Part shown: in pieces, positions 499-63,433 of the stretch
Layout of the letters: the number at the start of each line of letters is the position of its first letter
Numbering within the stretch: the stretch's first letter is position 1
Source of the DNA: Pseudomonadota bacterium
Lineage (GTDB): Bacteria > Myxococcota_A > UBA9042 > GCA-2863065
DNA length: 64,000 nucleotides
NCBI GenBank assembly: GCA_947498315.1
Contig: CANMLD010000002.1
Span: 8,368-72,367, forward strand
Direction: 5' to 3'
Translations under genes and position numbers: made by a program
The notes under the pieces: model-generated
Databases searched by the model: none
What the model was told of the DNA's origin: nothing
The model's input: the letters and a program-made list of their open reading frames with translations, nothing else

Positions 499-2763
499 TC
501 AGGGGATCACGCGCCACAGCTTCAGCGAGCCATCGGGATTGAGTGCGCCCGTCGCGATGAGGCCGGAGGGCAGGGTGCGAACGCAGCACGGATTTGCTTT
601 GCCCGCCGAAGTGACTGCTTGCGACGCTCCGTCCCGGAGCGACCACGCTCGAAGCTCGCCCAGCTCGTCGATGGTGAGAGCGAGTGGCAACGTCGGGTGG
701 AACGCGAAGTCCACAAGGTCGACCGTGCTGCCGGTGAAGGAGCGGTTGCGGCCCTTCTTCTCCTCTTCTGTGGCGCCCTCGCGGTACGCGTCGAGGTTCA
801 CGAGCTCGATGCTGCGGTCGTTCTCGATGAAGCCGAGGGTCTTGCCGTCCGGAGAGAAGGCCATGCCAAGGAGCTCGCGTCCTAGCCGTGTCCAAAGGAT
901 GTGTCCGTTCTCCAGCGAGCGAACGACAGCGACGTCGTCTCTCTCGGCGCTCGCGATGCGGGTCCCGGTGGGATCGATCGCAAGGGTCACAACCGGGCTC
1001 GAGTGCTCGGACAGGTTCTCGCGGTCAGCCAGGTCGGCCGTATCGTCCGCGGGCGCCTCACCGCTCCGCGGCGGAAGGAGCCGTTTCGGATTCACTCGCA
1101 TGATCCGGCTGTCTCTGCCCGCCGAGACGAGAAGGGGCCCCTTCGCACCCGTCGCCGTCACCAGCCCTCGTATCTGTCCGTAATGGTTCCGAATGGCGGG
1201 GCGGTCCGCCGGCGGGATGCCCCCGGTCGAAGCGAACTCGGTCCCTTCGAAGTCCCCGGCGTCGAAGACGGCGCCGTCTTCGAGGCCGACGTACACCCGT
1301 GAGCCGTCCGGGCTGAGCGCGACCGCGCTGGCGTCCACCTCAAACGGCGGGAGCACTCGCACAGCCCACCCGGGCGCCTCCGCGAGCGCCACTCGACCGC
1401 GGCTCACAACGGCCAACCTCTCTCTCCCTCCGCCCCCGCTCGCGGCCATGGCCCAGACGCCCCCCCCGGGCGACGGGAGGGCAGGGAGCGCGGGTACTGC
1501 CAGCTCGGTGGGCTTGCTCGGCGAGACGGCGACAACCCCCTGCGCTGTCGCGACGTAGAGCGTCTTCCCGTCCGGCGAGAGCCGCAGGCCCTCGATGTTC
1601 CCCCTGCCGAGCTGGTCCGGCTCGGCGACCACGCCATCGGCAGTGGGATCGCGGTGATAGACGCCGATGCGTCCATCCTGCTCACCGATGGCCAGCGAAC
1701 CATCCGGTCCGACCGCGACGTCGACGAGGCGCGACGTGCCAATCTCCCGCATCGCCAACTCTTTCAGCGAGTCGGGAGCGAGCCAGCTCACCTGGCCACC
1801 AAGGCCGACGGCGAGCACGTAGGCCGAGAGCGCTCCCGGCGCACCGTTGTCCTTCGACGGCGCCACGGCCGACTTCGAGGGCATCTCGGGTGCGGCGTCT
1901 CCGACGTCCCCGGCACCGTCCCCTCCCTCATCGCCCATCTCGGGCTCCGAGTCGCCATCGCCGTCGATCTCGTTGTCCTCGTCTTCAGGGAGGTCTTCCA
2001 GTTCCGGCAACGTGGCCGCCTTGACGTGCGCAAGTGCGATGACCGAGTTCGGGAGCTTCGGTGACGTACCCAGCGATTCGCCATTGTCGAGGCTCCAACG
2101 ACGCACCGTAGCGTCCCGAGCCCCGGAGTAGAGGCTCTTGCCGTCTTCCGCGAAGAGGAGCGTGTAGACGGACATCGTGTGGCCCTTGAAGGTGTGCGTC
2201 CGCTTGCCGCTCGCCGTGCTCCAGACGCGGACGTCGTCGTCGACAGAGCCCGTCGCCACGTGTTTGCCGTCCGGGCTGACGGCCAGGGCCTTCACGTCGC
2301 CATCGTGGGCAGGGACGTCTCGCAGGAGCTTTCGGGTGGGTACGTCCCAAATGAGCAGTCGGTTGTCGGCACCCGCGGTCGCTAGGACCTTGCCATCGGC
2401 GGAGAAGGCCGCTTCGAAGACGGCCTCGGTGTGCCCTCTCAACGCCACGCTAGCCGCCTTCCCATCCGTCCTGACGAGGTGGAAGAGCCCGTCCGACGCA
2501 CCGACGACCAGAAGCGAACCGTCGGGCGAGAGCGCAAGGGCACCGCTCACCTCTCCGGTCGGGACCACGATGGAGCGGACGGCTTCGAAACGGGCCGTCG
2601 ATGGGGGCGCATCGACAGTTCCTGCGGCGGACTTCGCAGCAGATTCGATGGGAGGTCCATCTTTCTTGCAGCCCGCAGCACTCACAGCGAGGGCTGCCAA
2701 GGACGAGGAGACTGCGGTCAAGACGACGTTGTTCATGGGGTCGACGCTACTATAAGGCCACAC
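499..2763 (-). CDS. WD40-repeat (beta-propeller) lipoprotein; the likely true start is the second Met at 2736 (MNNVVLTAV...AAGC lipobox)
   Basis: Repeated WD40 units (e.g. GHTMSVYTLLFAEDGKSLYSGARDATVRRWSL; LLIWDVPTRKLL...GDVKALAVSPDGKHVATGSVDDDVRVWS). N-terminal signal peptide with lipobox LAVSAAGC. Acidic low-complexity linker in the middle. Confidence 0.7.
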   Translation of the reverse strand: MWPYSSVDPMNNVVLTAVSSSLAALAVSAAGCKKDGPPIESAAKSAAGTVDAPPSTARFEAVRSIVVPTGEVSGALALSPDGSLLVVGASDGLFHLVRTDGKAASVALRGHTEAVFEAAFSADGKVLATAGADNRLLIWDVPTRKLLRDVPAHDGDVKALAVSPDGKHVATGSVDDDVRVWSTASGKRTHTFKGHTMSVYTLLFAEDGKSLYSGARDATVRRWSLDNGESLGTSPKLPNSVIALAHVKAATLPELEDLPEDEDNEIDGDGDSEPEMGDEGGDGAGDVGDAAPEMPSKSAVAPSKDNGAPGALSAYVLAVGLGGQVSWLAPDSLKELAMREIGTSRLVDVAVGPDGSLAIGEQDGRIGVYHRDPTADGVVAEPDQLGRGNIEGLRLSPDGKTLYVATAQGVVAVSPSKPTELAVPALPALPSPGGGVWAMAASGGGGRERLAVVSRGRVALAEAPGWAVRVLPPFEVDASAVALSPDGSRVYVGLEDGAVFDAGDFEGTEFASTGGIPPADRPAIRNHYGQIRGLVTATGAKGPLLVSAGRDSRIMRVNPKRLLPPRSGEAPADDTADLADRENLSEHSSPVVTLAIDPTGTRIASAERDDVAVVRSLENGHILWTRLGRELLGMAFSPDGKTLGFIENDRSIELVNLDAYREGATEEEKKGRNRSFTGSTVDLVDFAFHPTLPLALTIDELGELRAWSLRDGASQAVTSAGKANPCCVRTLPSGLIATGALNPDGSLKLWRVIP

Positions 2764-2880
2764 GGATAACGATCTCTAGCACCGGGGGGCGGTTGTCCAC
2801 CCCCGGGGCGCGTGCTACAACCACAGCGCTCGTCTGGAGCGTCACGCCGTCGTGCCGCTCTAACGCCACACCACAAAATC

Positions 2881-5800
2881 ATGCCCTCTGGAGAGCCGCC
2901 GATGGACATCGCCGAGATGCGGGACGCGATTGCCAAGAACCCGACGGACGCCGTGACGTTCGAGAAGCTCCAGAACGCGCTTCTGGACGAGCGAAAGCTC
3001 CCGGAGCTCAAGGCAGTCTACGAGTCGGTGTTCCCAGCGATCAAGGATTCTCCCGACAAGGAGAAGATCCTCCGCCTCGTAGACAACGCCGCGCGCCTCT
3101 ATGACGACGAGGGCATTAAGCACTGGCTCAACGCCCAGCTAGGGATCCTCTATTGGCGTGTACTCGACAGCCTTGATCGCGCTGAGGTCTATTTCCGCCG
3201 CGTACAAGATGCCGCGGGCCACTCGGGCGGCATGGTCGGTGAGTTCTATATCGAGTTCTACGCGCGCCGTGACAATTGGCGCCGTCTCGAAGAGCTCTTT
3301 CAGAAGCAGGGCCTCGAGGACATCGAGATCAAGCGGAAGCTCGCGGTCATCGCGGAGGAGCGCGACAAGAAGGACAAGGCGCTCGCCTTCTGGCAGGAGG
3401 TCTACAACTACGATCCCTCCGACGAGACCGTCTTCGACCGGCTTCGTCAGCTCTACGTGGGCGCCGAAAAGTGGCACAGCCTCGTCGAGCTCCTGAAGAA
3501 GCGTCTTGCCGCTGTCGACGGCGACGTCGCTGCCGCGGTCACGCTTCACTTCGAGATGGTCGGGATCTACCGCGAGTACATCAAGAGCGAGACCAAGGTC
3601 ATCGCCGAGCTCCAAGCGCTGTTGAAGCTCGACCCGTCGAACGCCGATGCGCTCGACCAACTCGAGCAGCTCTATGAGGGCATGAAGCGCTGGCCGGACC
3701 TCGTGCGCGTCCTTCAAGAGCGCATCGTCCATGCCACCGGCGAGACGAAGCTCGGTCTCCACGCCCGAATCGCGTCGATCATGCTCGAGCGCTTCTCGAA
3801 TGCGTCGGAAGCGATAAAGCACTATCAGGCCATCCTCGAGCTCGACGGGCAGAACCTCGACGCCATCCGGAAACTCAAGGAACTCTACGAGCAACGGAAG
3901 ACGTGGGAGCAGTACGTCGAAGTCGCGCAGCTCGAGATCCGTCTCGCGGGCGGGTCGCCACAGGACCGAACGAACTCCCTCATCCAACTCGCCGGGCTCG
4001 CCAGCGAGAAGATCCGGGTCCCGCGTATCGCGGTCTCCCTCTGGGAGCAGATCCTCGAGACCGATCCGACGCACGCAGACGCCCTCGCTCAACTCGAGCA
4101 ACTCTATGAGCGCGACAAGGCGTACGACAAGCTCGCCGACATCATCTCTGCCCGCGCTGATCAGACCTCGGACGTCGCGGCACAGGTCGCGCTTCTCGAG
4201 AAGTTGGGCGCGGTCATCTCGACTCGCTTGAAGGACGAAGAGCGCACAGCGGACGTCTGGCGCCGGCTCCTCGCGATCCAGACCGGCCACAAGAAGGCCT
4301 TCGACGAGCTCCGCAAGCGCTACCTTGCGGCATCGGACTTCGACGCGCTCGAAGGGCTGTATCGCCAGCATGGGACCCTCTCCGAGCTCACGCGCGCCCT
4401 CGAAGCGCAGGTGAAGTCCGAGTCGGACACGGGCAAGATCTCGCTATTGCAGCGCATCGCCGGTCTCCGCCGCGAAGAAGGAAACGCGCCGAAGGCGATC
4501 GCGGCCCTCGAAGAGATCCTGGCCCTCGACTCGCAGAACGCCGCCGCCGCTAGGGCCCTCATCCCGGATTACGCGTCGCTCGGCCAGTGGGACAAGCTTG
4601 CAGGCGCCTACGACGTCGTGCTCGGCGCTACCGAAGACGCCGCCACGCGCCGTCCCATTCTCGAGTCCAAGGCTCGAATCGCGGAGACCCAGCTCGGCGA
4701 CAGCAACGCCGCCTACTTCTGCCTCGTCGAGTGCCTCCGCAACGCGCCTGGTGACACCGACTTGCGTAGCGAGCTCGACCGTCTCGCCCAGGCCAGCGAC
4801 AACCTCGAAGGCTTCGCCGAGGTCCTCGAGGAGGCCCTCGAGCTCCTCGACGAATCGTCTCCAGAGGTGCTCCGAACCACGCTCCGAGTCGCCGAGATAT
4901 GGCACGGCCTCGGCAGCCCCGGACGCGCGCTCGGTCACTACGCCCGCGTCGTTCAGGTGTTGCAGCCCGGTCACACGGGCGCCCTCGCCGCGATGGAAGC
5001 CATCTATCGCGAGACGGGCCAGTGGGATGAGCTCCTCGAGCTCCTCCAGGACAAGCAGAACGGCAGCAACCTCGACGCCGAGGGGCAGAAGTCGCTGCGG
5101 TTCGAGATCGCGGCTGTGTGCCGCGACAAGCTCGGTCGTGCGGAAGATGCGATGCGCGTCTACCGCGAGATGATGGATCAGTTCCCGGACGACCTCCGCA
5201 TCTACGACGAGCTGGCCCAACTCCACCTTCTGGCCGAAGACTGGATCGAGCTCATCTCGGTGCTCGAGCGCAAGCTCGGGGCGCTCAGCGACCGCTCCGA
5301 CACGAAGCCGCAGGCTATCTCGGAGCTCCGCGCTCGCCTCGGCCTTGAACACGTGCGCTTCGGAGAGTCGGCTCGCGCCGTCGAGTACTTCATCGACGCC
5401 CTCAACGCCGACGGCAACAACGACGTCGCCATCGCACAGCTCACCATCCTCATGGCTCAGTCGGCGCTCGAGCGTACCGTGGCTGAGGCCCTCGAACCGG
5501 TCTGGGTACGCCGTGGCGACGATAAACAACTCGCCGCGGTCATCGAGATCCAGCTGCGCTACGCGCGCGACAAGAAGGCCAAGAAGAAGCTCATCGAGCG
5601 CTTGGTCGTCCTTTACCGCGACAAGATTGCCGATGACGCAGCCGCTCTCGATGCGGCCAGCCGCCTCTTCGTGCTCGATCCCGAGGCAGGCTTTGCCAAG
5701 GGCGCTCGCCCCACTGTCGAGGCCATCGCCCTCAAGCTCGGTGCTCACGCCGCGCTCGCGGACCTCTACGAGCAGAACGTCGATCGTATCGACGAGCCTG

Positions 5801-8800
5801 CCACGCGCCTCATCGTCCACAACGCCATCGCGCGAAGTGTCTACGAACACGGCAGCGACTTCATCCGAGCCGAGAAGCACTTCCGCTCCATCCTGGACAT
5901 CGACGGGGGCCATGCGGACACCCTCGACGCGCTCGAAGAGCTCTACGCCGTTACAGAGCAATACGAACTGCTCCTCGAGATCGTGCTTAAAAAGGAGCAG
6001 CTCGCTACGAGCGACGACGCTCGGGTCGCGTTCCGCTTCCAGACCGCCACACTCCTCGCCGAGCAGCTCGGCCGAATTCCGGAAGCGATCGACGACCTTC
6101 GCCGGATCCTGGGCATCGAACCCGGCAATGCGCAAGCGCTCGCTCGCCTCGACGACCTCTACACCCGCACGGAAGCCTGGCTAGACCTCCACGACATCCT
6201 GCGTTCGCGCATCGATGGCGCCGCGTCCGACGATGACCGGGTCTCGCTCTTGGTGCGCCTCGCCGAGCTGCAGGAGACCCGGCTCGACATGCCGACGGAC
6301 GCGGTCATCACGTACGCCGACGTCATCGCCATCGACTTCGTGCAGCCGGACGCCGTGGGCGCCCTCGAGCGTCTCTTCGCGGAGCCTGACTACGCAGGGA
6401 TTATCGCGCCCATCCTCGAGGCTACCTACCAAGCCACCGGTCGATGGGACGGCCTCGTGGCGGTCTACACCGAGATGGAGCGTGCCGCCGAGACCACTGA
6501 CGAGAAGGTTGACCTCCAGTTCAAGATCGCCGGCCTCTACGAAGGCCCGGGCCAGTCGCCGGCGCAGGCGTATCAACACCTCGGTGAAGCGTACCGCTAC
6601 GATCCGGCGCGCGAGACCACGGTCAAGGAGCTCATCCGCCTCGCAGACGTCCTGGGCGATCAGCGCGGTCTCACGGTCTTGCTCGCAGAGAAGGTCGAAC
6701 TCATCGCGGACGAGACCCGCCGTCGAGAGACCCAGCGCGTCATCGCTCAAACCCTCGCGGACAAAGTCGGCGACGCACCGAAGGCCATCGAAGCGTATCG
6801 GGCCGTACTCGATCTCGCGCCGGGCGATGTGCAAGCGACCGACGCCCTCATCACGCTCTACCGCAAGACCGAGCAATACCCTCAGCTCGTCGACATGCTG
6901 CGCCAACGTGCAGGTCTCGAGAACGACGTCAAGCGCAAGAAGGCGCTCCTCGCCGAAGCGGGCGAGATCGCCTCGGCCGCCATCGGCGCAGAAGAAGCCA
7001 TCTCGGTCTACGAGTCCGCGCTCGAGGTCGATCCGAACGACGTCGCCACCCTCGACGCGCTTGCTCGGGTCTACGAGGAGACCGAAGCCTGGAACGACCT
7101 CTGCCGTATCCTTGGCCGCAAGATCGAGCTCGAAAGCGACCTCGAGACGAAGAAGGCCTACGCCCGAGAGCTCGCCGGCGTTCAGGAGCAGCGGATCGAA
7201 GACCCGGACAGCGCCATCGAGACGCAGCGGGTCATCCTCGGATGGGACGAGGCGGACCTCGCCGCGCTCGCGTCACTCGACGATCTCTTCGGACTCACCG
7301 AGCGCTGGATCGAGCTCATCGAGATCATCGATCGCCAAAACGCGCTCGGCGCGGGCGACAGCGCTGACTTGATGCTCCGTAAAGCCTCGGTGTGGAACGA
7401 GAAAGTCGGCGATACGGGCCAAGCCATCAACGTCCTGTCGGCCATCCTCACCGAACGTCCGCAAGAGACGCGCGCCATCGCGGCGCTCGAAGCCATCGTC
7501 CGCGACAGCGACGAGCGTGAAGCCGCCTACGCGGCTCTCCGGCCGGTTCTAGAGAATAGTGGAGCCTGGTCCGCCATCCTCGGCCTCTCCGAGATCTTGG
7601 TCTCAACTCGCGATATCCCTGCGGCCCAAGTGCAGGCCCTCGCCGACATGGCGACGATCGCCGAGGCGCGGCTCAACGCGCCAGAGAACGCCTTCAGCTT
7701 CTGGGGTCGTGCCCTCGCCCTTGACGGAGACGACACCGACGCCATGGCGGCGGTCGAGCGGCTTGCGAAGGCTCACGGACTCTGGGAGGCGCTCGTCGAG
7801 CTGCTCGACGCTGCCGCCAAGCGCAACGACGATCCGTCTCGCAGCGTCACCCTGCGTCTGCGCGCAGCTGACGTCTTGAAGGACGAGATCGGCGCTTACG
7901 ACCGCGCCATCGTCTCTTATAACGTGGTCCTCCAAGACGACGATCAGAACGCGACGGCGCTCCTGGCCCTCGACGAGCTGTATACCGCGACCGACGCGCA
8001 TGCGGAACTGCCTGGCATCCTCGCCCGTCGCATCGACATCACGACCGACGCCGCCGAAAAGATCGGGCTCTACTTCCGCCTCGCTGACGTCGCGGAGAAC
8101 CGACTCGGCGAGTCCGACCGCCCCGTCGAGTGCTTCCGCGAGATCTTCTACCTGAACTCCAACAATGCAGCCGCGATCTCCGAACTCGAGCGGCTCATGC
8201 GCACGACAGGGCACCGTCTCGAGATCGCAGACCTGCTCGAGCCGGTGTACGCGGACCGCGGCCAGTGGCCGCAGCTCCTCGCGCTCCTCGACCTGCGCCT
8301 CGACTTGGCGAAGGACCCGACCGACCGCCTCGACCTGCTCCGCCGGATGGCATCGGTCAGCCTCGACCAGCTTGGGAACAAGGGCGACGCCCTTCACCGC
8401 TACAGCTTGGCCTTCAAGATCGATCCCGGCGACGACAGCCTCCTCGAACGCGTGGAGACCCTCGCCTCCGAGACCGGCGACTACGCCTCCCTGAAGGAGA
8501 CGCTTCTCGCCGTTGCAATCGGTCTTCAGGAGAAATCCCGCAAAATCGAGCTCTGGCACAAGGCTGCTCTGGTCGTTATGAACCAGCTCGCCGATAAGGA
8601 CCAGGGCGAGCGTATCTACGAGTACGTCCTCAATGAGGACCAGTCGGATCTGACGGCGCTCCGCGCCCTCGACACGCTCTACGTCCAGCAGAACCGCTGG
8701 ACCGAGCTCGACGTATGCCTTCAGAGCCAAGTCGCCGCCGTCGAGTTCGACGACGAACGGGTCGGGCTGCTCCTCCGCCTCGGCGAGCTGTGCACGGGCA

Positions 8801-11800
8801 AACTCGGCCGTCCCGCCGACGCCATCGCTGCCTACGTCGATGCCTTGGCTTACAACGAGACCGAACCGACGGCGCTCGCCGCGCTCAACACACTCTATCG
8901 TGACGTGGGTGAGTGGGAGCCGCTCTTCGACATCGCGACGCGTCAGTCGGAGATCGCGTCGGACGACGCCACGCGTCTCGCCCACAAGCGAGACTTGGCC
9001 GAGCTCGCCGAGAACAAGCTCGGACGTGCCGAGGACGCTCTCCACCTCTGGGAGGACGTGCTCTCGATCACCCCGGCCGACCTCGACGCCATCCGCCACA
9101 TCGAGCGTCTCCACAGGGGCGCCGGCAACGACGAGGGTGTGGCCGAAGCCATGGAACGCGAGCTCCGTACGCTCGGCGGGGAGGACCCCGTCCGTGCATC
9201 GGATCTCTACCGCGAGTTGGGTCGCCTCTTCGCAGGCAAGCTCGACGACCCCTTCAAGGCGCAGGAGGCCTGGGAGCGTCTCCTCGACCTCGAGGACAAC
9301 GACGTCGAGGCACTCAAGGCCCTCGCGAAGCTGCACGAAGACGGGTCGAACCTCGAGGCACTCGCCAAGACGCTCGAGAAGATGGTCGCGTCGCGTCGCT
9401 TCTTCGGCGACGAGGTGCTCGCTCTCTGGCAACAGCTCGCCCGGCTCTACACCGAGTCGGTGCCCGAGCCGCAGAACGCCATCCGCGCGTGGAGCCAAGT
9501 CCGCGACGTTCGTCCGGACGATCTCGAAGCGGTTCGCGCTCTAGAGACGCTCTACAGCGATGGCGGACAGTGGGCGCCGGCGGTGGCCATGATGACCGTC
9601 AAGGCTGGCCTCGTGCCGGCGGCCGAGGCGGTCGGCGTCTGGTTCGCGATCGGTGAGGCGCAGCAGTTCCAGCTGAGCGACCCGGCGTCAGCGGCGGTCT
9701 CGTACGCCCGGGTGCTCGAGCTCGACAACGCACATCAAGATGCCGGAGAGCGCCTCGAAGGCATCTACCAGGACTCTGGACGCTTCGCTGACCTCGCCAA
9801 GCTCCTCGAAGCCCGCGCGGATCTCCTCGACCGTCCCGAAGACAAGCGCGACCTCTTCGTGCGGCTGGCCGACCTCTACGAGACGCGCCTCGGCGACCTC
9901 GCGGCGGCGCTCGTCTATACCATCGCAGCGCACGATCAAAAGCACGGTGACCTCGATATCGTCCTCTCTATCGAGCGGATCGCCACGGTGATCGAGCAGT
10001 GGAGCGATCTGCACGAGCAGTACGCCTTCGCGCTCGACGCGACCACCGACGAGACCGACCGCATCGACATCGCGCTCCGCGATGCGCGGCTTCTCGAGTC
10101 CAAGCTTCAGGACTCGCAGGGGGCCATCGAGCGCTACCGGCATGTCTTGGAGCTCAACCCGGATCACGCTGAGGCGATGCTCGAGATCGCGGGTCTTTAC
10201 GAGAAGACCGGAGCCTGGGAAGACCTCGTCGCGATCCTCGAGCGTCGCTTCGGGTCGTCCAACGACTCGTTCGAGCGCGGTGAGATCGGCGTCAAGATCG
10301 GCTCGGTGCTTCGTGACCAGCTCGGCGCCATCGACCGTGCCGTCGATGCCTTCAAACGGGTCTTGGACCTCGGTGTGGCCGAACAGCGCGTCATCGAGGC
10401 CCTCGAAGCGATCTTCCGCAGCGCGTCCCGCTACGACGACCTCGTGGAGATCCTCTTCGCCAAGGCGAATTCGGGCCTCGGCAACGAGACGGCGCTCAAG
10501 CTCGAGATCGGCTCCATCCGTGAAGAGAAGCTGTCCGACCCGCGTGGCGCCATCGACATCTACGAGTCGATCCTGAGCCTCGATGAGTCGAATCGCGACT
10601 CGCTCGACCGCTTGATGAGTCTCTACGCCGACGTGAACGACATGGAGCGTCTCACGAGCGTCTACGAGCGGCTCCTCCACGCGGCCGAGTCGGACGAGGA
10701 ACAGATCACCTACTGCGAGGCGCTGGCCGTCCTCCAGAAAGACGTCCACCAAAACCCGGAAGCGGCAGCGGACTACTACTTCCGCATCCTCACCATCGAC
10801 ACGAAGCACTCGGACGCCATGGCGGCGCTCGAGGAGCTTTACGAGACGATGGAGCGCTGGGAGGACCTCATCGAGATCTTCCGCCGGCGCCTAGAGCAGT
10901 CGGATGACACGACGACGTGGTCCTCCTACAAGGAGAAGTCGGCGCGCCTCTACTCCGAGAAGCTTCAGGATCTCGGCAGCGCCATCGACGCCTACCAGCA
11001 GCTCATCGATCGCGTCCCGGGGAACCGCGCCGCGCTCGACGCGCTCGAGGCGCTCTACCGCGCTGACGCACACTGGGAGCGCGTGCAGGACGTGCTCGCG
11101 CAGAAGGCCGAGTACACCAAGGGACCCGAGCGGCTCGCGCTGCTCATCGATCGCGCTCGCATCGTGCTCGAAGAGCTGTCCGATCCGGATGGTGCGCTCG
11201 AGATCGCACGTCGCGCCGAAGTCGAGGCGCCGAGTGACGCGACCATCTCCAGCTTGCTCGAGGCGGTCTACGGGCGACGCGGCGAGTGGGACCAAGTGGT
11301 TCAGGTCCTCAGCCGACGCGGCTCTCACGCCCGGTCGGACGCCGATTCGGCCGCCGCCGAAGTCGCGATCGCAAAGGTCTACGAAGAGAAGCTGCACGAC
11401 GGCGAAGCGGCCATTCGGCACTATGAGCGGGCGCTCGAGTTGGTCCCATCCGACGTTCAGACGTCGGAGCGCCTCGCAGGCCTCTACGTCATCGCGGAGG
11501 ACTGGATCAAGGCGGAGGCACTCCTGTCTCTCATCGTTCGTCGGGCTCCGACCGACGCCGAACCTGAGTGGATGAGTCGCACGTACAAGAACCTGGGTCT
11601 CTCGCTCGAGAACATGCTCCGCCCCTCGGAGGCCCTCGAGGCGTACGAGCAGGCGCACAACTTCGCCCCAGAGGACATGGAGATCCTGAAGGCGCTGGGC
11701 CGCGCGGCCGAAGCGACCGGAGACTTTGGCACGGCGGAGAAGGTCTTCACACAGCTCATCGAAGCGGCGCGTCTCGACGCGACCGAAGCGGAGCTCGTGA

Positions 11801-13644
11801 ATCTCTACAAGACCCTCGGTCAAATGGCGTTCAAGGCTGGCAAGGTCGACAAGGCTCGCGAGTACCTCGAGAAGACGGTGTCGCTCCAGCCGGGCAGCAC
11901 GGACGCGCTCCGCAACCTCATGTCGCTGTGCGAGCAGCAGGGTTACTGGCAGGGCGTCGTGGAGTACGGCGTCGAGCTTCGGGACATCCTCACCGAGCCC
12001 ATGGAGAAGTTCGAGCTTCAGCTCCGCCTCGGTGACGCTTACCTGAAGCACCTGAAAGACATCGACGAGGCCGCTCGAGCATACCGCACAGCGCTCGACT
12101 TCCAGCCGGAGTCGAAGGGTGCGCACTTCAAGATCTTCCAGGTTCTCGTCGATGCCGAGCGCTACGACGAAGCCGTCGAGATTCTAGAGAAGCTGGTTAC
12201 GCTCGAAGCCGACCCGAAGCGCAAGGCACAGTACCTCGGAGCGGTCGGCGACATCTTCCGCGAGAAGAAGGGCGACCTCATCGGGTCGGTCGATTACTAC
12301 GAGCGCGCGCTCGACTACGACTCGAGCCTGCTCAAGCTCTTCCGTAGCATCGATGAGATCCTGACCCAGGCGAAGGACTGGCGTCGCCTGGAGAAGGCGT
12401 ACCGCAACATGTTCAAGCGCGTGGCGGACGACGAGACGCAGGAGCAGCTCCAGTACAAGTTGCTCTTCCTCCTCGGCGAGATCTACCGGACGCGGCTCGC
12501 GAGGCCGGACGCATCCAAGGCAGCGTTCGAGAACGCGCTCGAGCGTAAGCCGCGTGACGCCAAGTCGCTGCAGATCCTGGCGGAGATGTACGAGGCGGAC
12601 GAGCAGTACGAGGACGCCGTCCGCTGTAAGCGCCGTCTGCTGGAGATCGAGCCGGGTAACGTCGACCACTACCGCGATTCGAAGCGCCTCATGTTCGCGC
12701 TGAAGGATCTCGACGGAGCGTGGGTGGCCTGCGCGGTTCTGACGCTCCTCGGTCAGGCCAACGAGAAGGAAGAGGCGACCTACAATCAGCACGCGCCGAA
12801 GCAGATCGCCGAAGACGCGCTGACGCCGACGACCAACCTGTGGGGTCAGCTATTCTCAAAGGGCGAAGAACTCCTGATCGGTCACATCTTCTGGACCATC
12901 TACCAGGGCATCGGTTCCCAGCTCGCTACCAAGGAGTTGAAGGACTACGGGCTGAAGAAGAAGAGCCAGATCGATCCGAACGAGAAAGAGCTGCTCATGC
13001 ACGTCTACCGTCACACGGTGCGCGTGCTCGGGCTCAACCCGCCGCCGGAGCTCTACCACTCGCCCAAGACGCCTGGCTTGCAGCTCGCCGAGATCTTGCC
13101 GCCGGTCCTTTTGGTTGGCGACAATGTCCGACAGGGACAGACCGACCAGGAGCTCGGCTTCGTGCTCGGCAAGTCTCTGACGTACTTCCACAATTTGCAT
13201 CTCGCCGTGGCGCTCTCTCCACTCGAGACGCTCGAGACGCTCTTCAACGCGGCGGTCAAGCTGTTCGTGCCGTCCCACGACGTCGGCGCGCTCGAACAGA
13301 ACGAGGCGTTCCAGGAGCTCCTCGTAGCCCTCGGGGGCATGCCGCCGCAGCTCCGTCAGGGCCTGCAGCGCTACGTCGGCGAGTACATCGAGCGCGGCCA
13401 AAAGGCGAACCTCACGCGTTGGCTGAACCAGATCGAGCTGACGGCCAACCACGTCGGGTTGCTCATGTGCAACGACCCGCACGTCGCAGGCCAGATCATC
13501 AAGAACGAAGCGCATCGCACGCTCTTCCAGGCGCCTAGCCGGCTCGCGACCCGCGACAAGCTCGTCGATCTCGCCGTCTACTCGTTGTCTGAGGAGTACC
13601 TCGGCCTACGCAAGACGCTCGGGATCGCGATCGAGGCTGAGTAG
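2881..13644 (+). CDS. Giant (~3,590 aa) cytoplasmic TPR-like repeat protein with a ~480-aa non-repeat C-terminal domain; alternative upstream start at 2812
   Basis: Single uninterrupted 10.8-kb ORF. About 45 units of a ~76-78-aa double-helical-hairpin repeat with consensus ...Y..(V/I)LElDP.N..AL.aLe.LY......W..L..iL... No signal peptide. The last ~480 aa (from ~LKDLDGAWVACAVLTLLGQANEKEE) lose the periodicity. Confidence 0.8.
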   Translation: MPSGEPPMDIAEMRDAIAKNPTDAVTFEKLQNALLDERKLPELKAVYESVFPAIKDSPDKEKILRLVDNAARLYDDEGIKHWLNAQLGILYWRVLDSLDRAEVYFRRVQDAAGHSGGMVGEFYIEFYARRDNWRRLEELFQKQGLEDIEIKRKLAVIAEERDKKDKALAFWQEVYNYDPSDETVFDRLRQLYVGAEKWHSLVELLKKRLAAVDGDVAAAVTLHFEMVGIYREYIKSETKVIAELQALLKLDPSNADALDQLEQLYEGMKRWPDLVRVLQERIVHATGETKLGLHARIASIMLERFSNASEAIKHYQAILELDGQNLDAIRKLKELYEQRKTWEQYVEVAQLEIRLAGGSPQDRTNSLIQLAGLASEKIRVPRIAVSLWEQILETDPTHADALAQLEQLYERDKAYDKLADIISARADQTSDVAAQVALLEKLGAVISTRLKDEERTADVWRRLLAIQTGHKKAFDELRKRYLAASDFDALEGLYRQHGTLSELTRALEAQVKSESDTGKISLLQRIAGLRREEGNAPKAIAALEEILALDSQNAAAARALIPDYASLGQWDKLAGAYDVVLGATEDAATRRPILESKARIAETQLGDSNAAYFCLVECLRNAPGDTDLRSELDRLAQASDNLEGFAEVLEEALELLDESSPEVLRTTLRVAEIWHGLGSPGRALGHYARVVQVLQPGHTGALAAMEAIYRETGQWDELLELLQDKQNGSNLDAEGQKSLRFEIAAVCRDKLGRAEDAMRVYREMMDQFPDDLRIYDELAQLHLLAEDWIELISVLERKLGALSDRSDTKPQAISELRARLGLEHVRFGESARAVEYFIDALNADGNNDVAIAQLTILMAQSALERTVAEALEPVWVRRGDDKQLAAVIEIQLRYARDKKAKKKLIERLVVLYRDKIADDAAALDAASRLFVLDPEAGFAKGARPTVEAIALKLGAHAALADLYEQNVDRIDEPATRLIVHNAIARSVYEHGSDFIRAEKHFRSILDIDGGHADTLDALEELYAVTEQYELLLEIVLKKEQLATSDDARVAFRFQTATLLAEQLGRIPEAIDDLRRILGIEPGNAQALARLDDLYTRTEAWLDLHDILRSRIDGAASDDDRVSLLVRLAELQETRLDMPTDAVITYADVIAIDFVQPDAVGALERLFAEPDYAGIIAPILEATYQATGRWDGLVAVYTEMERAAETTDEKVDLQFKIAGLYEGPGQSPAQAYQHLGEAYRYDPARETTVKELIRLADVLGDQRGLTVLLAEKVELIADETRRRETQRVIAQTLADKVGDAPKAIEAYRAVLDLAPGDVQATDALITLYRKTEQYPQLVDMLRQRAGLENDVKRKKALLAEAGEIASAAIGAEEAISVYESALEVDPNDVATLDALARVYEETEAWNDLCRILGRKIELESDLETKKAYARELAGVQEQRIEDPDSAIETQRVILGWDEADLAALASLDDLFGLTERWIELIEIIDRQNALGAGDSADLMLRKASVWNEKVGDTGQAINVLSAILTERPQETRAIAALEAIVRDSDEREAAYAALRPVLENSGAWSAILGLSEILVSTRDIPAAQVQALADMATIAEARLNAPENAFSFWGRALALDGDDTDAMAAVERLAKAHGLWEALVELLDAAAKRNDDPSRSVTLRLRAADVLKDEIGAYDRAIVSYNVVLQDDDQNATALLALDELYTATDAHAELPGILARRIDITTDAAEKIGLYFRLADVAENRLGESDRPVECFREIFYLNSNNAAAISELERLMRTTGHRLEIADLLEPVYADRGQWPQLLALLDLRLDLAKDPTDRLDLLRRMASVSLDQLGNKGDALHRYSLAFKIDPGDDSLLERVETLASETGDYASLKETLLAVAIGLQEKSRKIELWHKAALVVMNQLADKDQGERIYEYVLNEDQSDLTALRALDTLYVQQNRWTELDVCLQSQVAAVEFDDERVGLLLRLGELCTGKLGRPADAIAAYVDALAYNETEPTALAALNTLYRDVGEWEPLFDIATRQSEIASDDATRLAHKRDLAELAENKLGRAEDALHLWEDVLSITPADLDAIRHIERLHRGAGNDEGVAEAMERELRTLGGEDPVRASDLYRELGRLFAGKLDDPFKAQEAWERLLDLEDNDVEALKALAKLHEDGSNLEALAKTLEKMVASRRFFGDEVLALWQQLARLYTESVPEPQNAIRAWSQVRDVRPDDLEAVRALETLYSDGGQWAPAVAMMTVKAGLVPAAEAVGVWFAIGEAQQFQLSDPASAAVSYARVLELDNAHQDAGERLEGIYQDSGRFADLAKLLEARADLLDRPEDKRDLFVRLADLYETRLGDLAAALVYTIAAHDQKHGDLDIVLSIERIATVIEQWSDLHEQYAFALDATTDETDRIDIALRDARLLESKLQDSQGAIERYRHVLELNPDHAEAMLEIAGLYEKTGAWEDLVAILERRFGSSNDSFERGEIGVKIGSVLRDQLGAIDRAVDAFKRVLDLGVAEQRVIEALEAIFRSASRYDDLVEILFAKANSGLGNETALKLEIGSIREEKLSDPRGAIDIYESILSLDESNRDSLDRLMSLYADVNDMERLTSVYERLLHAAESDEEQITYCEALAVLQKDVHQNPEAAADYYFRILTIDTKHSDAMAALEELYETMERWEDLIEIFRRRLEQSDDTTTWSSYKEKSARLYSEKLQDLGSAIDAYQQLIDRVPGNRAALDALEALYRADAHWERVQDVLAQKAEYTKGPERLALLIDRARIVLEELSDPDGALEIARRAEVEAPSDATISSLLEAVYGRRGEWDQVVQVLSRRGSHARSDADSAAAEVAIAKVYEEKLHDGEAAIRHYERALELVPSDVQTSERLAGLYVIAEDWIKAEALLSLIVRRAPTDAEPEWMSRTYKNLGLSLENMLRPSEALEAYEQAHNFAPEDMEILKALGRAAEATGDFGTAEKVFTQLIEAARLDATEAELVNLYKTLGQMAFKAGKVDKAREYLEKTVSLQPGSTDALRNLMSLCEQQGYWQGVVEYGVELRDILTEPMEKFELQLRLGDAYLKHLKDIDEAARAYRTALDFQPESKGAHFKIFQVLVDAERYDEAVEILEKLVTLEADPKRKAQYLGAVGDIFREKKGDLIGSVDYYERALDYDSSLLKLFRSIDEILTQAKDWRRLEKAYRNMFKRVADDETQEQLQYKLLFLLGEIYRTRLARPDASKAAFENALERKPRDAKSLQILAEMYEADEQYEDAVRCKRRLLEIEPGNVDHYRDSKRLMFALKDLDGAWVACAVLTLLGQANEKEEATYNQHAPKQIAEDALTPTTNLWGQLFSKGEELLIGHIFWTIYQGIGSQLATKELKDYGLKKKSQIDPNEKELLMHVYRHTVRVLGLNPPPELYHSPKTPGLQLAEILPPVLLVGDNVRQGQTDQELGFVLGKSLTYFHNLHLAVALSPLETLETLFNAAVKLFVPSHDVGALEQNEAFQELLVALGGMPPQLRQGLQRYVGEYIERGQKANLTRWLNQIELTANHVGLLMCNDPHVAGQIIKNEAHRTLFQAPSRLATRDKLVDLAVYSLSEEYLGLRKTLGIAIEAE

Positions 13645-13659
13645 CTCTGCGCGGTCAGC

Positions 13660-14330
13660 TTTCAGCCCCAGCGCCGGCGTCGCCTGCATCAGCCGGAGGT
13701 GACTCAGGGCTATCAGCGATCAGCGTTCAGCGGTCAGCCCGTCGAGGCCAGGGAAGCGCCTCACCCTGCGAGACATGTAGCCCGGCCGGCCGGCTGGCCG
13801 GAGCTTACCGCCGACCGCTTACCGCTGAGCGCTCAGAAGCAGCACTGAGCGCCGCGCCGGCATCGCCGGCAGCCGCCCCGGACATCGAGTCAGTCATGAG
13901 TCCCAGCCCCCACGCCGGCTGTTGCCGGCGACAGCCGGAGCTAACGCAAGCGCTCAGCCATCAGCCCTCAGCGTTCAGCCAGGCAACGTCCGTGGCTCCC
14001 CTAAGTGAGATGCTACGTCGGCCGGCCAGGGCCGGAGCTTACCGCCGACCGCTGACCGCTGATAGCCCCGGGGCAGGTCTACGCGACGCGCCGGCTCAGC
14101 CGGCAGCAGCCCTGGGAGTCGAGTTAGTTACGAGCGGTCAGCCGGGCAACAACCACGGTACTTCGAGCCGCCGTGTAGGCTCGGCCGGCTGGCCGGAGCT
14201 GGCGGCTGATCGCTGTGCGCTGAACGCTTTCGCGTCGCACCGAGCGCTGCGTCGGTATCGCCGACAGTCGCCCGGGCGTCGGAGTCAGTCACAAGCTGGG
14301 TCGACAGCAGCCGTCCCAGGGACGGCGGCC
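13660..14330. repeat. Intergenic mosaic of ~3 degenerate ~230-bp tandem units with embedded 12-bp inverted repeats and GC palindromes (ggccggccggctggccgg)
   Basis: 'cggccggctggccggagcttaccgccgaccgct' recurs near 13790, 14020 and 14175. 'gggctatcagcg' (13706) and 'cgctgatagccc' (~14057) are an inverted pair, as are 'tcagcggtcagc' (13729) and 'gctgaccgctga' (~14048). 'gagtcagtcatgagtc', 'gagtcgagttagttacgagc' and 'ggagtcagtcacaagc' end each unit. Confidence 0.5.
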
Positions 14331-14341
14331 GACGTGGCTTC

Positions 14342-15142
14342 ATGAGCACCCTCTACGTCGTCGCGACGCCGATCGGAAACCTGGAGGACATCACCCTCCG
14401 GGCCATCCGAACACTGAAGGAGTGTGGAGCTATCCTCGCGGAGGACACGCGCCACTCCCTCGGGCTCCTACAGCACCTCGGGGTGCCAAAGAAGCCCCTC
14501 CACGCCTACCACGACCACAACGAAGCCGAGATGGTCCCGCGCGCCTTGCGCTGGCTCGCTGAGGGCACGACCCTGGCGCTCGTGACCGACGCTGGCACAC
14601 CTGCCATAAGCGACCCGGGCTACCGTCTCGTTCGGGCCGCACGAGACGAGGGGTTCCAGGTCGTGCCAATCCCAGGTGCGTGCGCGGCGGTCGCGGCGCT
14701 CTCCGTAGGAGGGCTCCCCACCGACCGCTTTACCTTCGCCGGATTCCCGCCCAAGAAGGCCGGCGCGCTCGGGCGCTTCTTCGAAGAGCTCGCAGGCAGC
14801 GCTGGCACACTCGTCCTCTACGCGGCCGCCCGAGACGTCGTGGAGGTCCTCCAAGCCGCCATAGCTTCCCGGGGCGACACGGACGTCGCCATCTTCCGCG
14901 AGCTCACCAAGACCTTCGAGGAAGTCAGCCGAGGTCCCGCCAGCGTCGTCATCGCTGACTGGACGACGACCCCTCGAAAAGGAGAAGTAACCCTCCTCTT
15001 GGGCGAGCCCGCCTCCCTCAATTGGGACGACGACACCCTTCGCGCCATGCTCGGAAAGGGCAGCCTCGACGACGTACGCGCGGCCACCGGGGTCAGCAAG
15101 AAGCGGCTCTACTCCCTCAAGTTAGGGCTCGGTCGAAAATAA
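14342..15142 (+). CDS. rsmI: 16S rRNA (cytidine1402-2'-O)-methyltransferase RsmI
   Basis: N-terminus LYVVATPIGNLEDITLRAIRTLKECGAILAEDTRHS and the motifs TDAGTPAISDPG and PIPGACA are typical of the RsmI/tetrapyrrole-methylase fold. Confidence 0.85.
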   Translation: MSTLYVVATPIGNLEDITLRAIRTLKECGAILAEDTRHSLGLLQHLGVPKKPLHAYHDHNEAEMVPRALRWLAEGTTLALVTDAGTPAISDPGYRLVRAARDEGFQVVPIPGACAAVAALSVGGLPTDRFTFAGFPPKKAGALGRFFEELAGSAGTLVLYAAARDVVEVLQAAIASRGDTDVAIFRELTKTFEEVSRGPASVVIADWTTTPRKGEVTLLLGEPASLNWDDDTLRAMLGKGSLDDVRAATGVSKKRLYSLKLGLGRK

Positions 15143-15412: not shown

Positions 15413-17836
15413 ATGAGTCGCGTGTTTTTTGGTCCGGCGAGTTCGGTACGACGTGGTCGGAACCCGGGTGCAGCTACCGTGGTGGGTTCGCTCCTGGCGT
15501 CATGGGGCCTAGGCTGTAGCTCGCCAGAGAGTGAGAGCGCTCTGGTGACGGGCGCACAGACCGAGAGCTGCGCCATCGACACCGACTGCGACGACAGGGA
15601 TCCGTGCACCGCTGAACGGTGCAGTGCGCTCAAACTCTGCGCCACGGTGGAGCTCGGCAGGGCGTGTCGAGCTCCCGAGCTCGTGGGACAGGCGGGCCTC
15701 GAGATGGTGCAGACGGTCAACCAAGGCCAGGGTGGGCGCGAGGGCTTGCTCGGCGCCAGCGCCATGGCGGCCTCCTCTATCGGCGATATCTACGTCGCGG
15801 CGCCGAGCGAAGGGCGTCTGACCCGACTCTTGTGGAAGGACAACCAGCTCTCTCTGGGCGAGTCCATCGAGACTGGCGTCATCTGCGACATTGCGCTGAC
15901 CGACGAGGAATCGCACCTGTACGCTCTTGGAGATGAGCGACTCGCCGTCTTTCCGCGTGAGGTGTTGACCGGAGACCTCGGCGAGCCACTTCGGGTCGGC
16001 GTCGGAGGGACTGCGATTGCCCTCCACCGAGACTCGGCGTGGCTACTAGGTACTGGGCGTCTCAACGAGGTTCGTCTTGGTAGCGACGGGGTCCTCACGA
16101 TGGGGCTTTCAGTCGATGCACCAAGTACAATCTCCGCGACGAGGGCAAGATGGTGCGGCTCCCCTGGCGCAGGACGCCAGGTGCTAGTCGTCTCGAGCCG
16201 CGAAGCGTCATCCATCACACTCTGGGACTTCTCGAATGACGATGGGGAGCCCGTTCTGCTTGGCGCGCTCGGCAGGGAGGATGGGCTCGATGGTGTGGTC
16301 GGCGCTGCCTGTAGTCCCAAGGGCGATGAGATGGTGGCCGTCACCCGCGACAATGGCGAGCTGGTCATGTTTGATTGGCCAGACGACTCTCTTCTCCCGA
16401 TCGTAACAAGTCGAACCTCTATAGCGGCGGCGCAAGCAGAGCTCGAGGGCCGTCAAGCCGATGAGTTCGTGGTCGATCCCATCGACGTCGGTTTTGGCGG
16501 TGCAGGCGGCAAGTCGAGGGCGTTGGTCGTCTTGGCAGCGCGAGAGATTGGCGCCGTCCTCTTCGACCTTGACGGCGTTGCCCCAGTCCTTCTGCCTTCG
16601 CACGGCCTGAGGTTCGAGGTCGTAGACTATCTCCGTTCCGAAGTGGAAGAGGGGCAGCGCAGTGGCTCGCCCGACTCGGGCTCCACAGTGGCGTCGGGTG
16701 TCGTGCTTCCCTTCGGCCAAGACCTGATCTTCACGTCTGGCTTACACTCGGCGGTGGGCGTCGTTCGGCCAGACGGGTCGCTGGTGACGGTGCGACAAGG
16801 CGACGGCGGGGTCGATGGCCTCACAGGCGCAAACAACCTCGACGTGTCGCCAGACGAACGCACGCTGGTCGTCGCGTCGAGATACGCGAACGCCATCACC
16901 AGTTTCCGTATTGTCGCCAACGGCGGCGCCGTCGTGCCGCTCCCCGCCACGAAAGCCCCCGGGCCGCAGTTGTCGTTTCACGACGCGGTCGTCTCCAGGC
17001 CGAACGGGCACCTCGTACACGGGCTCGAGAACATGTTGGGCCGCGTGCATACGTATGCGTTGGACGCCGAGACCAGTGAACTCACGCCCATCGACATCGC
17101 TGCCGTACCGCCACCGTCCGGCGGTGAGCAGGCGTTCCCTGTGAGGATGCGGGGGTCACCAGACGGCCGTAGCCTGTACGTAGGCGACTTCCAAAGAGAC
17201 CTCCCGAGCGGGCTCATCGAGTTCGCCGTCGACCTCGCGTCCGGGCGCACCGAGGCAGTGATGCGCCACGAGCAGGACGAACTTGCTGGCATCGAGGATA
17301 TCATCATCAACGCCGATGGCAGCCACATCCTGGCGACCTGCTACCTCGCTAGTTCGGTCGTTCACTACTCTCGCGCGGCTAGCGGCGCTCTGACAGCGAT
17401 GACGCCCCTCGTCGATGAACGGTTCTTTGGAGCTGAGTTCCTCGCACTGTCCCCAGACGAGACGCATCTATACGTGGCGACAGCGGCCCGGCCCAGCGGC
17501 AATCTTCTCTCGGTGCTCGAGGTGGACCTCGATGGCGACCACATGACGATCACACAGAGTTTATCGTCGGACGATGGCATCAAGTTCGAGGAGGCTGGGG
17601 GTCTCTCAGTTTCCGCGAGCGGCCTGCTTTGGGCGGCGTCCCGAGCCGACGATGCCATCAACCTTCTCGAACCCCGCCCCGATGGTCGACTCTCGCCCGT
17701 CACCTCCGCGCAAAGCGCAGACAAGCTCGGTTGGGCCAACGATTTGCAGGTTTCCAAGAACGGGAAGTGGCTCTACGTGGCGGCGGCGGTGTCGGATGGG
17801 ATCGCAGTCCTTGCGACGGGCGTAGCTCCCAAGTAG
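15413..17836 (+). CDS. Secreted/lipo-protein with an N-terminal Cys-rich knot followed by two lactonase-type (COG2706-like) 7-bladed beta-propeller regions
   Basis: Signal peptide (RRGR...LLASWGLGC). Motif CAIDTDCDDRDPCTAERCSALKLC. Repeated blades of the type SPDERTLVVASRYANAITSFRI / SPDETHLYVATAARPSGNLLSV / SKNGKWLYVAAAVSDGIAVL. Confidence 0.5.
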   Translation: MSRVFFGPASSVRRGRNPGAATVVGSLLASWGLGCSSPESESALVTGAQTESCAIDTDCDDRDPCTAERCSALKLCATVELGRACRAPELVGQAGLEMVQTVNQGQGGREGLLGASAMAASSIGDIYVAAPSEGRLTRLLWKDNQLSLGESIETGVICDIALTDEESHLYALGDERLAVFPREVLTGDLGEPLRVGVGGTAIALHRDSAWLLGTGRLNEVRLGSDGVLTMGLSVDAPSTISATRARWCGSPGAGRQVLVVSSREASSITLWDFSNDDGEPVLLGALGREDGLDGVVGAACSPKGDEMVAVTRDNGELVMFDWPDDSLLPIVTSRTSIAAAQAELEGRQADEFVVDPIDVGFGGAGGKSRALVVLAAREIGAVLFDLDGVAPVLLPSHGLRFEVVDYLRSEVEEGQRSGSPDSGSTVASGVVLPFGQDLIFTSGLHSAVGVVRPDGSLVTVRQGDGGVDGLTGANNLDVSPDERTLVVASRYANAITSFRIVANGGAVVPLPATKAPGPQLSFHDAVVSRPNGHLVHGLENMLGRVHTYALDAETSELTPIDIAAVPPPSGGEQAFPVRMRGSPDGRSLYVGDFQRDLPSGLIEFAVDLASGRTEAVMRHEQDELAGIEDIIINADGSHILATCYLASSVVHYSRAASGALTAMTPLVDERFFGAEFLALSPDETHLYVATAARPSGNLLSVLEVDLDGDHMTITQSLSSDDGIKFEEAGGLSVSASGLLWAASRADDAINLLEPRPDGRLSPVTSAQSADKLGWANDLQVSKNGKWLYVAAAVSDGIAVLATGVAPK

Positions 17837-22678: not shown

Positions 22679-23052
22679 GAGATGCGGACTATCAGGAAAG
22701 GTCGGCTTGGGGAAGTTCAGCCAGCATCGCGCCTCTAGGAGCCTGCTGCGTTTCTCCCGTCGCCGGCCTTCGCGCTTCCCCTCGATAGCGGCGTCAGATG
22801 TCTGCGATACGTCCTCACGTACCTTTTGGTACGCTCCGGGCGTTTCTCGACATCTTCCTTGCTCTCGAAGGGAATCGCTTCGGCCTGCTCGGTCCGAAAA
22901 ACAGCAGGCTCCTATGACGCAGGCTGGTCGAAGTTCGCCGACATCGCTCCGGGTCGTTGTCCCCACGTCTTGACGATGCCCCTGGTCATCGTCTCAGCAC
23001 GCTCCCAGGGCAGGCGTCGACGTGCCCCGGCCGAGCCGCTAAGCTCTCGCGC

Positions 23053-63358: not shown

Positions 63359-63432
63359 TCGGGGATCGTCTAATGGCAGGACTACGGACTCTGACTCCGT
63401 TAATCTAGGTTCGAATCCTAGTCCCCGAACCA
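63359..63432 (+). tRNA. tRNA-Gln (anticodon CTG)
   Basis: Cloverleaf: acceptor tcgggga/tccccga, anticodon stem acgga/tccgt with loop ctCTGac, T-arm ctagg-ttcgaat-cctag, discriminator A plus encoded CCA. The variable loop is only 4 nt. Confidence 0.75.
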
Positions 63433-63433
63433 T

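Follow-up and report, generated by a model that had tools for sequence, protein, structure and literature searches.

Several described proteins come close, in one respect or another, to the one reported here. BepA/YfgC of Escherichia coli (PDB 6sar), a periplasmic protein of 487 amino acids (aa), joins a domain of the M48 peptidase fold to tetratricopeptide repeats (TPRs) in one polypeptide, the peptidase with its active HEISH site standing before the TPR part. Ste24/ZMPSTE24, HtpX, the sensor domain of BlaR1 (M48/M56) and the minigluzincins (proabylysin, projannalysin and selecase) are zincins that are membrane-embedded or else small stand-alone active enzymes or zymogens, with HExxH. Among eukaryotic proteins consisting of TPRs, TTC21B/IFT139 and SKI3/TTC37 form long uninterrupted solenoids that serve as non-enzymatic platforms, and bacterial Ser/Thr kinases and SIR2 proteins with C-terminal TPRs are also to be compared. 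We describe here a giant TPR gene of about 10.7 kb whose product ends in a domain with a predicted M48-like zincin fold. It lies in a 64,000-nt stretch of DNA, hereafter the window, of a Pseudomonadota bacterium (GTDB lineage Bacteria; Myxococcota_A; UBA9042; GCA-2863065; assembly GCA_947498315.1, contig CANMLD010000002.1, positions 8,368 to 72,367).

The giant protein differs from each of these systems. Compared with BepA, the order of the two parts is reversed, the TPR part extends over about 3,100 aa, a signal peptide is absent, HExxH has been lost in all 131 family domains compared, and sequence similarity is undetectable; the HExxH motif, the profile match and the envelope location of M48 members are thus all missing. 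In contrast to the other zincins, its C-terminal domain is a soluble one that forms the end of a giant solenoid and is devoid of the zinc histidines. TTC21B/IFT139 and SKI3/TTC37 are only 1,300–1,600 aa long, irregular and without a terminal zincin-like domain, and their partners are known. Functionally the giant protein may be closest to these long TPR scaffolds (TTC21B/IFT139, SKI3), by a resemblance and not by homology beyond the TPR motif itself. Finally, four kinase or SIR2 proteins found in this analysis (P0103, P0114, P0151 and P0115) end in the same array and domain; the window protein, unlike them, has no enzymatic head, and its array is approximately two to three times longer and fixed in length.

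The giant gene and its product

As the original prediction had it, the gene is a single uninterrupted reading frame for about 3,600 aa. The maximal open reading frame (ORF) runs from GTG 2812 to position 13644 on the forward strand and contains 3,610 codons with no internal stop. The most likely start is ATG 2902 (MDIAEMRDAI...), giving 3,580 aa plus the stop; we prefer it because a Shine-Dalgarno-like GGAGAG precedes it and because, in phmmer and BLAST comparisons, the N-termini of the closest full-length relatives (MDI..., MDL... or MDM...) align with it. The GC contents at codon positions 1, 2 and 3 are 0.71, 0.39 and 0.85, as is typical of genuine genes where the DNA is rich in GC. Table 1 collects the features of the gene and its surroundings.

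Table 1. Features of the giant TPR gene and of neighboring loci (window coordinates)
Feature	Position	Strand	Basis or remark
Giant TPR gene, most likely coding sequence	2902..13644	+	ORF listing and translation; start alignment with orthologues; GC by codon position
Shine-Dalgarno-like GGAGAG	2890..2895	+	Read from sequence; 6 nt gap to ATG 2902
N-terminal head, 145 aa, helical, weakly repeat-like	2902..3336	+	phmmer against family members; repeat HMM
Repeat array, ~43 double TPR-like hairpin units with a period of 72 aa	3337..12675	+	ORF residues 176–3288; autocorrelation, unit HMM, Pfam
C-terminal 314-aa domain, predicted M48-like zincin fold without HExxH	12700..13641	+	Predicted model; family alignment
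Divergent WD40 beta-propeller lipoprotein gene, neighbor only	499..2736	-	Pfam WD40 E 1e-41; lipobox N-terminus
Repeat-rich intergenic spacer between giant gene and rsmI, 697 nt	13645..14341	.	Repeat search; absent from relatives
rsmI (16S rRNA C1402 2'-O-methyltransferase)	14342..15142	+	TIGR00096, 192.3 bits against cut-off 167.9
807-aa protein, lactonase-type 7-bladed propeller in C-terminal part	15413..17836	+	
TMEM43-like	21659..22966	-	
FG-GAP	26684..28687		
Patatin	28717..29964	-	
1,346-aa lamin-tail-domain protein	30817..34857	-	
PilZ	38807..40018		
1,285-aa thrombospondin type-3 repeat protein	40200..44057		Followed directly by the next gene
351-aa TPR protein	44057..45112		
tRNA-Gln(CTG) and tRNA-Glu(CTC)	63359..63508		1 nt apart

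The protein is probably soluble, very acidic and cytoplasmic, a location to which the lack of hydrophobic segments, the polar N-terminus (MDIAEMRDAIAKNPTD) and the acidic composition point. We looked for a transmembrane segment, a signal peptide and a lipobox and found none in the whole protein, in agreement with the earlier statement that a signal peptide is missing: the highest Kyte-Doolittle mean over 19 residues is 1.43, with none above 1.6. There are 645 Asp and Glu against 427 Lys and Arg, a net charge of approximately -218. The N-terminal head gives marginal matches to the repeat model and no match in NCBIfam, and is conserved in the closest orthologues, where phmmer finds it at the extreme N-termini with E-values from 1e-44 to 1e-7.

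The repeat array and its conservation

Residue numbers of the array are those of the ORF counted from position 2812. The original prediction proposed about 45 tandem repeats of about 77 aa with a very regular register. The double TPR-like hairpins and the number of units stand, and the quoted register agrees with the unit consensus RLARLYEEKLGDPDAAIDAYERALDLDPSDADALDALERLYEATGDWEDLVEILERRLELALGDDTERKLLL, which comprises two TPR-like hairpins; the period had to be corrected to 72 aa, or 216 nt. The periodicity analysis then suggested gave autocorrelation peaks of the protein sequence at lags of 72, 144 and 216, and a hidden Markov model (HMM) of the repeat, made from ten clear units and then run iteratively over the giant protein, produced 45 matches with E<0.01 over residues 176–3288, mostly spaced by 71–73 aa. 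When the 42 clear units and a few half or degenerate ones are counted together, the total is about 43–45. The Pfam scan of the whole protein found TPR-type families only, with TPR_2 at 115 bits (cut-off 27), TPR_19 at 111 bits, and TPR_7, TPR_14, TPR_8 and TPR_1 all above their cut-offs, so that the protein belongs to the TPR class in the sense of tandem helix-turn-helix motifs of about 34 aa scoring above curated thresholds. The Pfam family ARM_TT21_5th, which was built from TTC21, also matches the array (E 1.4e-21).

The array is not a recent amplification, as had been supposed from its degeneracy at the DNA level. Tandem Repeats Finder reported no tandem array in the gene, and the DNA holds only echoes of 30–56 nt, 60–80% identical and spaced at multiples of about 216 nt. 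We also sought conserved surface positions specific to individual units, and conservation was found to follow the structural TPR positions only.

To collect relatives, HMMER was run exhaustively against 1.84 billion cluster representatives, and the best 150 matches were examined. The profile carried about 220 TPR columns from P0002, so the total numbers of matches (9,435 and 3,448) are inflated by generic TPR proteins and were not used. A word-indexed homologue search, with the single domain or with a 37-sequence profile, returned only two short fragments, and a metagenome scan with an alignment of close relatives added two loci. Among the best 150 representatives, 130 contain the complete C-terminal domain, always 0–11 residues from the C-terminus; 72 of these 130 reach a length of 3,200 aa or more, and of these 68 begin with Met. 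Many of the shorter members look like fragments, because they start inside a repeat or lie on short contigs. The relatives are thus not ordinary short TPR proteins; had they been, this would, as stated in advance, have counted against the prediction.

Sources of the family are metagenome-assembled genomes (MAGs) of Myxococcota, Deltaproteobacteria and Bradymonadia, together with one cultured species, Lujinxingia litoralis (Bradymonadales), whose member (WP_111729458.1, 4,109 aa) is 28% identical to the window protein. The closest locus, from 'Myxococcales bacterium MAG_44', is 96% identical over the last 313 aa, and three loci from the species-genome collection are labelled as Myxococcales or (Delta)proteobacteria MAGs. 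Source annotations of the family read only 'hypothetical protein' or 'tetratricopeptide repeat protein', and our literature search for a family of giant TPR proteins with a C-terminal zincin-like domain found no paper.

Comparison of full-length members shows the most unusual property of this giant protein, namely an array that is nearly frozen. Sixteen full-length orthologues, 32–64% identical to the window protein, are 3,568–3,612 aa long, and their conservation is even along the array and almost free of gaps in the query columns. The orthologue at locus L003 aligns in one BLAST segment of 3,608 columns with 64% identity, and orthologues at 32–49% identity align from end to end, with 29–86 gap positions over some 3,600 columns. 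In other clades the proteins (3,800–4,230 aa) are colinear when followed backwards from the C-terminus and have their extra repeats at the N-terminal end. When units were compared between species, identity was 28–36% on the diagonal and 21–23% off the diagonal, that is, between non-equivalent units. On the basis of this difference and of the end-to-end colinearity, each repeat unit has its own orthologue, and the array is old, non-homogenising and nearly constant in length. The window protein accordingly shares the characters of the whole family, a 314-aa C-terminal domain after a long array of 72-aa units, colinear at 23–64% identity. The general picture of a giant TPR solenoid with a distinct C-terminal domain was supported.

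The C-terminal domain

A non-repeat domain of about 480 aa had been placed from about residue 3130 onward. A distinct domain does exist, and it is shorter: residues 3130–3296 are three ordinary repeat units according to the unit HMM, and the quoted non-repeat sequence (LKDLDGAWVACAV...) begins at ORF residue 3297 (nt 12700), from which 314 residues follow. The observation that the domain has no recognised motif held in the sequence libraries. Pfam gave no match to the domain of the query and 36 diverse relatives even at E<=10, Peptidase_M48 (PF01435) included; NCBIfam gave none for the domain, PADLOC none for the whole protein or for the domain, and the PDB no useful match by phmmer or with the 37-sequence profile.

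The fold, in contrast to the sequence, appears not to be wholly novel as had been thought. An AlphaFold2 model computed from the 37-sequence family alignment has a mean predicted local distance difference test (pLDDT) score of 93.9 and a predicted template modelling (pTM) score of 0.92; an earlier model from a 3-sequence alignment (pLDDT 40) was discarded. Among other helices, it contains three short strands at 118–139 followed by a helix at 149–161 (domain numbering), and this strand-strand-strand-helix succession is the usual order of zincins. The values tabulated beside the domain model are 8.6 for BepA/YfgC (PDB 6sar), 8.1 for ZMPSTE24, 7.8 for the M48 peptidase 3c37, 7.6 for BlaR1, 7.3 for Ste24p, 7.1 for proabylysin and 6.9 for projannalysin. 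As judged from the model, the domain has the mixed beta-sheet, active-site helix and third-ligand helix of the M48 gluzincin fold. Structure search of the domain against a viral fold library gave no significant match.

The metal site of this fold was looked for in the family alignment. HExxH is present in none of the 131 family domains, anywhere in the domain. Position 158 is K or R in 120 of the 131; where M48 enzymes have the catalytic Glu the residue varies (H, Q, A, N, S and others), and the column of the second histidine has Y, L, F or W. Other positions are well conserved: E or D at 246 (124 of 131), R or H at 251 (129 of 131) and D at 259 (122 of 131), as well as G253. The conserved E/D246-x-x-A/S249-N/C/D250, which reads E246-x-x-A249-N250 in the window protein, fits the ExxAD third-ligand pattern of M48 enzymes and may be its equivalent, as judged by motif and helix order and not by a significant alignment. 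When the domain was compared by hhalign with BepA, LoiP, YcaL and HtpX of E. coli, the best register placed K158, S159 and Y162 on the H, E and H of HExxH; this is exactly the register expected from the strand-strand-strand-helix order, and we used it only as a consistency check. In a separate comparison of the domain profile with BepA alone, the match fell in the TPR part of BepA and was judged to be spurious.

Between the window domain and that of L001, a 96%-identical relative, the ratio of nonsynonymous to synonymous substitution rates (dN/dS) is 0.044, which points to strong purifying selection on the domain. Considering that HExxH has been replaced by K/R-x-x-x-Y/L/F, the domain probably cannot cleave peptides. 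We infer from the model a pseudo-peptidase in which the fold, and perhaps the substrate groove, has been kept and the metal site lost, and which may bind an extended peptide in the old groove.

Relatives with enzymatic heads

The same C-terminal domain occurs in proteins of other architectures. Three relatives (P0103, P0114 and P0151) have an N-terminal Ser/Thr protein kinase (Pkinase) domain, and one (P0115) an N-terminal SIR2_2 domain, in each case followed by a shorter TPR array and the zincin-like domain; P0128 and P0139 have N-terminal regions of 650–800 aa with no assigned family in front of the same C-terminal domain. Loci of the kinase- and SIR2-headed relatives include L014 (1917–7235) and L013 (7001–11884), and their gene neighborhoods are unremarkable. 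Fusion of such heads to the TPR-plus-domain part suggests that the array and the zincin-like end together are not an enzyme but a module for recognition or regulation that can be used repeatedly, of which the window protein would be the head-less and greatly extended form.

Proposed function

The most likely function, to which we assign a probability of roughly 0.6, is that of a non-enzymatic scaffold, spacer or ruler of constrained length with a peptide-binding pseudo-peptidase end. The approximately 43 double-TPR units would form one continuous alpha-solenoid comprising nearly the whole protein. In the published consensus-TPR geometry there are about 8 motifs per superhelical turn with a pitch of about 7 nm, and about 86–90 motifs would thus give a rod several tens of nm long, a length derived from TPR geometry rather than computed. 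The long TPR surface would gather partner proteins, and the pseudo-peptidase end would hold on to one particular peptide or protein. Because the units are individually conserved and the length stays within about 1% across orthologues 32% identical, the array is better regarded as an object of fixed geometry than as a variable repeat tract.

Several points weigh against this scaffold function. The comparison of the domain profile with the four E. coli M48 proteins was not significant (hhalign, E 0.28), and residue-level mapping of the lost active site rests for this reason on topology and motif register. An alternative metal or catalytic site has candidate residues, H164 and H167 of the query's subfamily together with E246. 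In addition, the scaffold account does not explain why rsmI recurs next to the gene, as is described below.

A cytoskeletal or polar landmark-like role, offered as an example in the original prediction, would be one conceivable kind of scaffold. A more specific form is also conceivable, and we give it as a tentative idea with a rather low chance of being right. The protein would be a molecular ruler or cytoskeleton-like rod of Bradymonadia and Myxococcota, whose exact length sets a cellular dimension or spacing and whose dead-protease end clamps it to an anchor peptide; the individually conserved repeats would then be an ordered docking track for many different partners. As a variant, such a ruler would act with the co-located RsmI on the ribosome. 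If true, a ruler protein of this kind would be a bacterial counterpart of the giant eukaryotic ruler and scaffold proteins.

Genomic context

In 7 of 12 distinct loci the next gene after the giant one, in the same orientation, is that for RsmI: the window, L001, L002, L004/L005/L020, L015 (the L. litoralis locus, at 28% identity), L018 and L019. It is not at that position in L003/L017, L006, L007, L008 and L016. In relatives with rsmI, the two genes are separated by 45–116 nt or overlap at the stop, the start of rsmI in L004 overlapping the stop of the giant gene by 4 bp. The window, L001 and L016 also have metG close by. These facts can be read as a partnership, in which the giant protein works with RsmI in small-subunit maturation of the ribosome or in translation-linked quality control and the gene pair is co-transcribed. 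We think this improbable, however, because the pair is broken in 5 of the 12 loci, the two genes are parted in the window by the 697-nt spacer, and nothing in the strongly acidic giant protein suggests RNA binding. The cluster of rsmI and metG is a widespread housekeeping one, and the adjacency may be no more than the trace of an insertion long ago. In our view it indicates that the giant gene has been inherited vertically at a long-standing housekeeping position, with a functional link to RsmI as a minor possibility.

The spacer in the window contains three copies of about 110 nt (13787–13896, 14021–14130 and 14182–14291), inverted repeats of 23–39 nt of the type GCGATCAGCGTTCAGCGGTCAGC, and an exact 24-mer, GGCCGGAGCTTACCGCCGACCGCT, which occurs twice in it and nowhere else in the window (0 expected by chance). 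This spacer may represent a small intergenic element, repetitive or mobile in nature. A 149-aa ORF (13896–14345) that overlaps it shows no convincing match to any family and is probably not a true gene, and an Rfam scan of window positions 1–22000 gave no match.

On the upstream side, the divergent arrangement with a WD40 lipoprotein gene was seen as predicted: its product is a 745-aa WD40/PD40 beta-propeller with the lipoprotein signal MNNVVLTAVSSSLAALAVSAAGC. When synteny was examined, however, no WD40 homologue was found beside the giant gene in any of the 7 distinct related loci with a readable upstream flank; the neighbor thus gives no functional clue, and we rejected WD40 synteny as a functional link. 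Upstream genes vary among the loci and include LolA, RuvX/YceG and other TPR and FHA genes. We sought a conserved operon, and beyond rsmI and the occasional metG the neighbors differ (LolA, RuvX/YceG, TPR, FHA, PMT_2 and GDPD).

Other observations on the neighborhood are the following. It is in itself somewhat unusual for a eukaryote-style WD40 propeller to be exported as a lipoprotein. The 807-aa propeller protein encoded beyond rsmI has a homologue downstream of rsmI in L001 (70% identity), and the same position in L004 is occupied by a gene for 817 aa with no Pfam match. In the clade of about 4,100 aa, a shared gene block precedes the giant gene in an uncultured relative (L008, 1–7745) and in L. 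litoralis (L015, 1–7722); it consists of a TPR protein of about 1,100 aa, an unknown protein of 470 aa, a small ORF, an FHA/Yop-YscD_cpl protein of 660–740 aa and a 300-aa TPR protein, which may be clade-specific partners. Farther away in the window, positions 21659–45112 hold a series of genes whose domains are eukaryote-like or of the extracellular-matrix type (Table 1).

Other explanations

The one SIR2_2-headed and three kinase-headed relatives on the same TPR-plus-domain module could also mean that the protein serves as the sensor in a system for conflict or phage defence, in which the array and the C-terminal domain recognise an invader protein in the manner of TPR sensors of the STAND/Avs type. 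There is only a small chance that this is so. The giant form has no effector or nucleoside triphosphatase domain (TPR families alone in Pfam), PADLOC and the structure search of viral proteins gave no matches, and conservation is uniform and slow. Moreover, a housekeeping neighborhood (rsmI, metG, PSP1 and ruvX) has been kept across lineages at 24–28% identity, which points to vertical inheritance and not to a defence island.

If the candidate metal site mentioned above were functional, the protein would be an active metallopeptidase similar to BepA, with the TPR array recruiting substrates to a catalytic domain with an unconventional metal site. We regard this as very unlikely in view of the loss of HExxH from every member compared, the variable position of the catalytic Glu and the lack of any Peptidase_M48 match among the 37 diverse members; furthermore, H164 is Arg in most of the family.

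The Bradymonadales are predatory bacteria, and the family occurs in this order as well as in Myxococcota. A link between giant genes and predation has been reported (bioRxiv 10.1101/2023.11.21.568195), and this speaks for a secreted or surface giant protein used for predation or adhesion, like the giants reported from predatory bacteria. Such a role has hardly any probability here: the signal peptide, transmembrane segment and lipobox are absent, Pfam found no adhesin, immunoglobulin-like, RTX or enzyme domain, and secretion genes are not conserved nearby in the related loci.

An artefactual origin of the long ORF, whether as a frame left open by chance in GC-rich DNA, as a pseudogene or through misassembly of a repeat, may be practically dismissed, for although high-GC DNA gives many long spurious ORFs on other frames here, the gene's own frame has a GC of 0.85 at the third against 0.39 at the second codon position, the dN/dS of its C-terminal domain against L001 is low, no DNA-level repeat could mislead an assembler, and full-length colinear orthologues in independent assemblies already refute it.

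Significance

TPRs and the zincin fold are each already familiar parts, and we infer the function of their combination from sequence. The C-terminal domain represents an undescribed family, with no sequence match in Pfam, NCBIfam or the PDB, in which a predicted zincin fold appears stripped of its metal site; it joins, as a case from bacteria, a growing number of pseudo-enzymes that have been put to new use as binding modules. As a rule, repeat arrays grow, shrink and become homogenised. An array of about 43 units that are individually orthologous, with about 1% variation in length at one-third identity, argues for selection on geometry itself. The family comprises at least dozens of clusters at 50% identity, and its kinase- and SIR2-headed members offer a handle on what the module of TPRs and putative pseudo-peptidase recognises. 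Because one member belongs to a cultured species, L. litoralis, genetics and imaging of such a giant protein are feasible.

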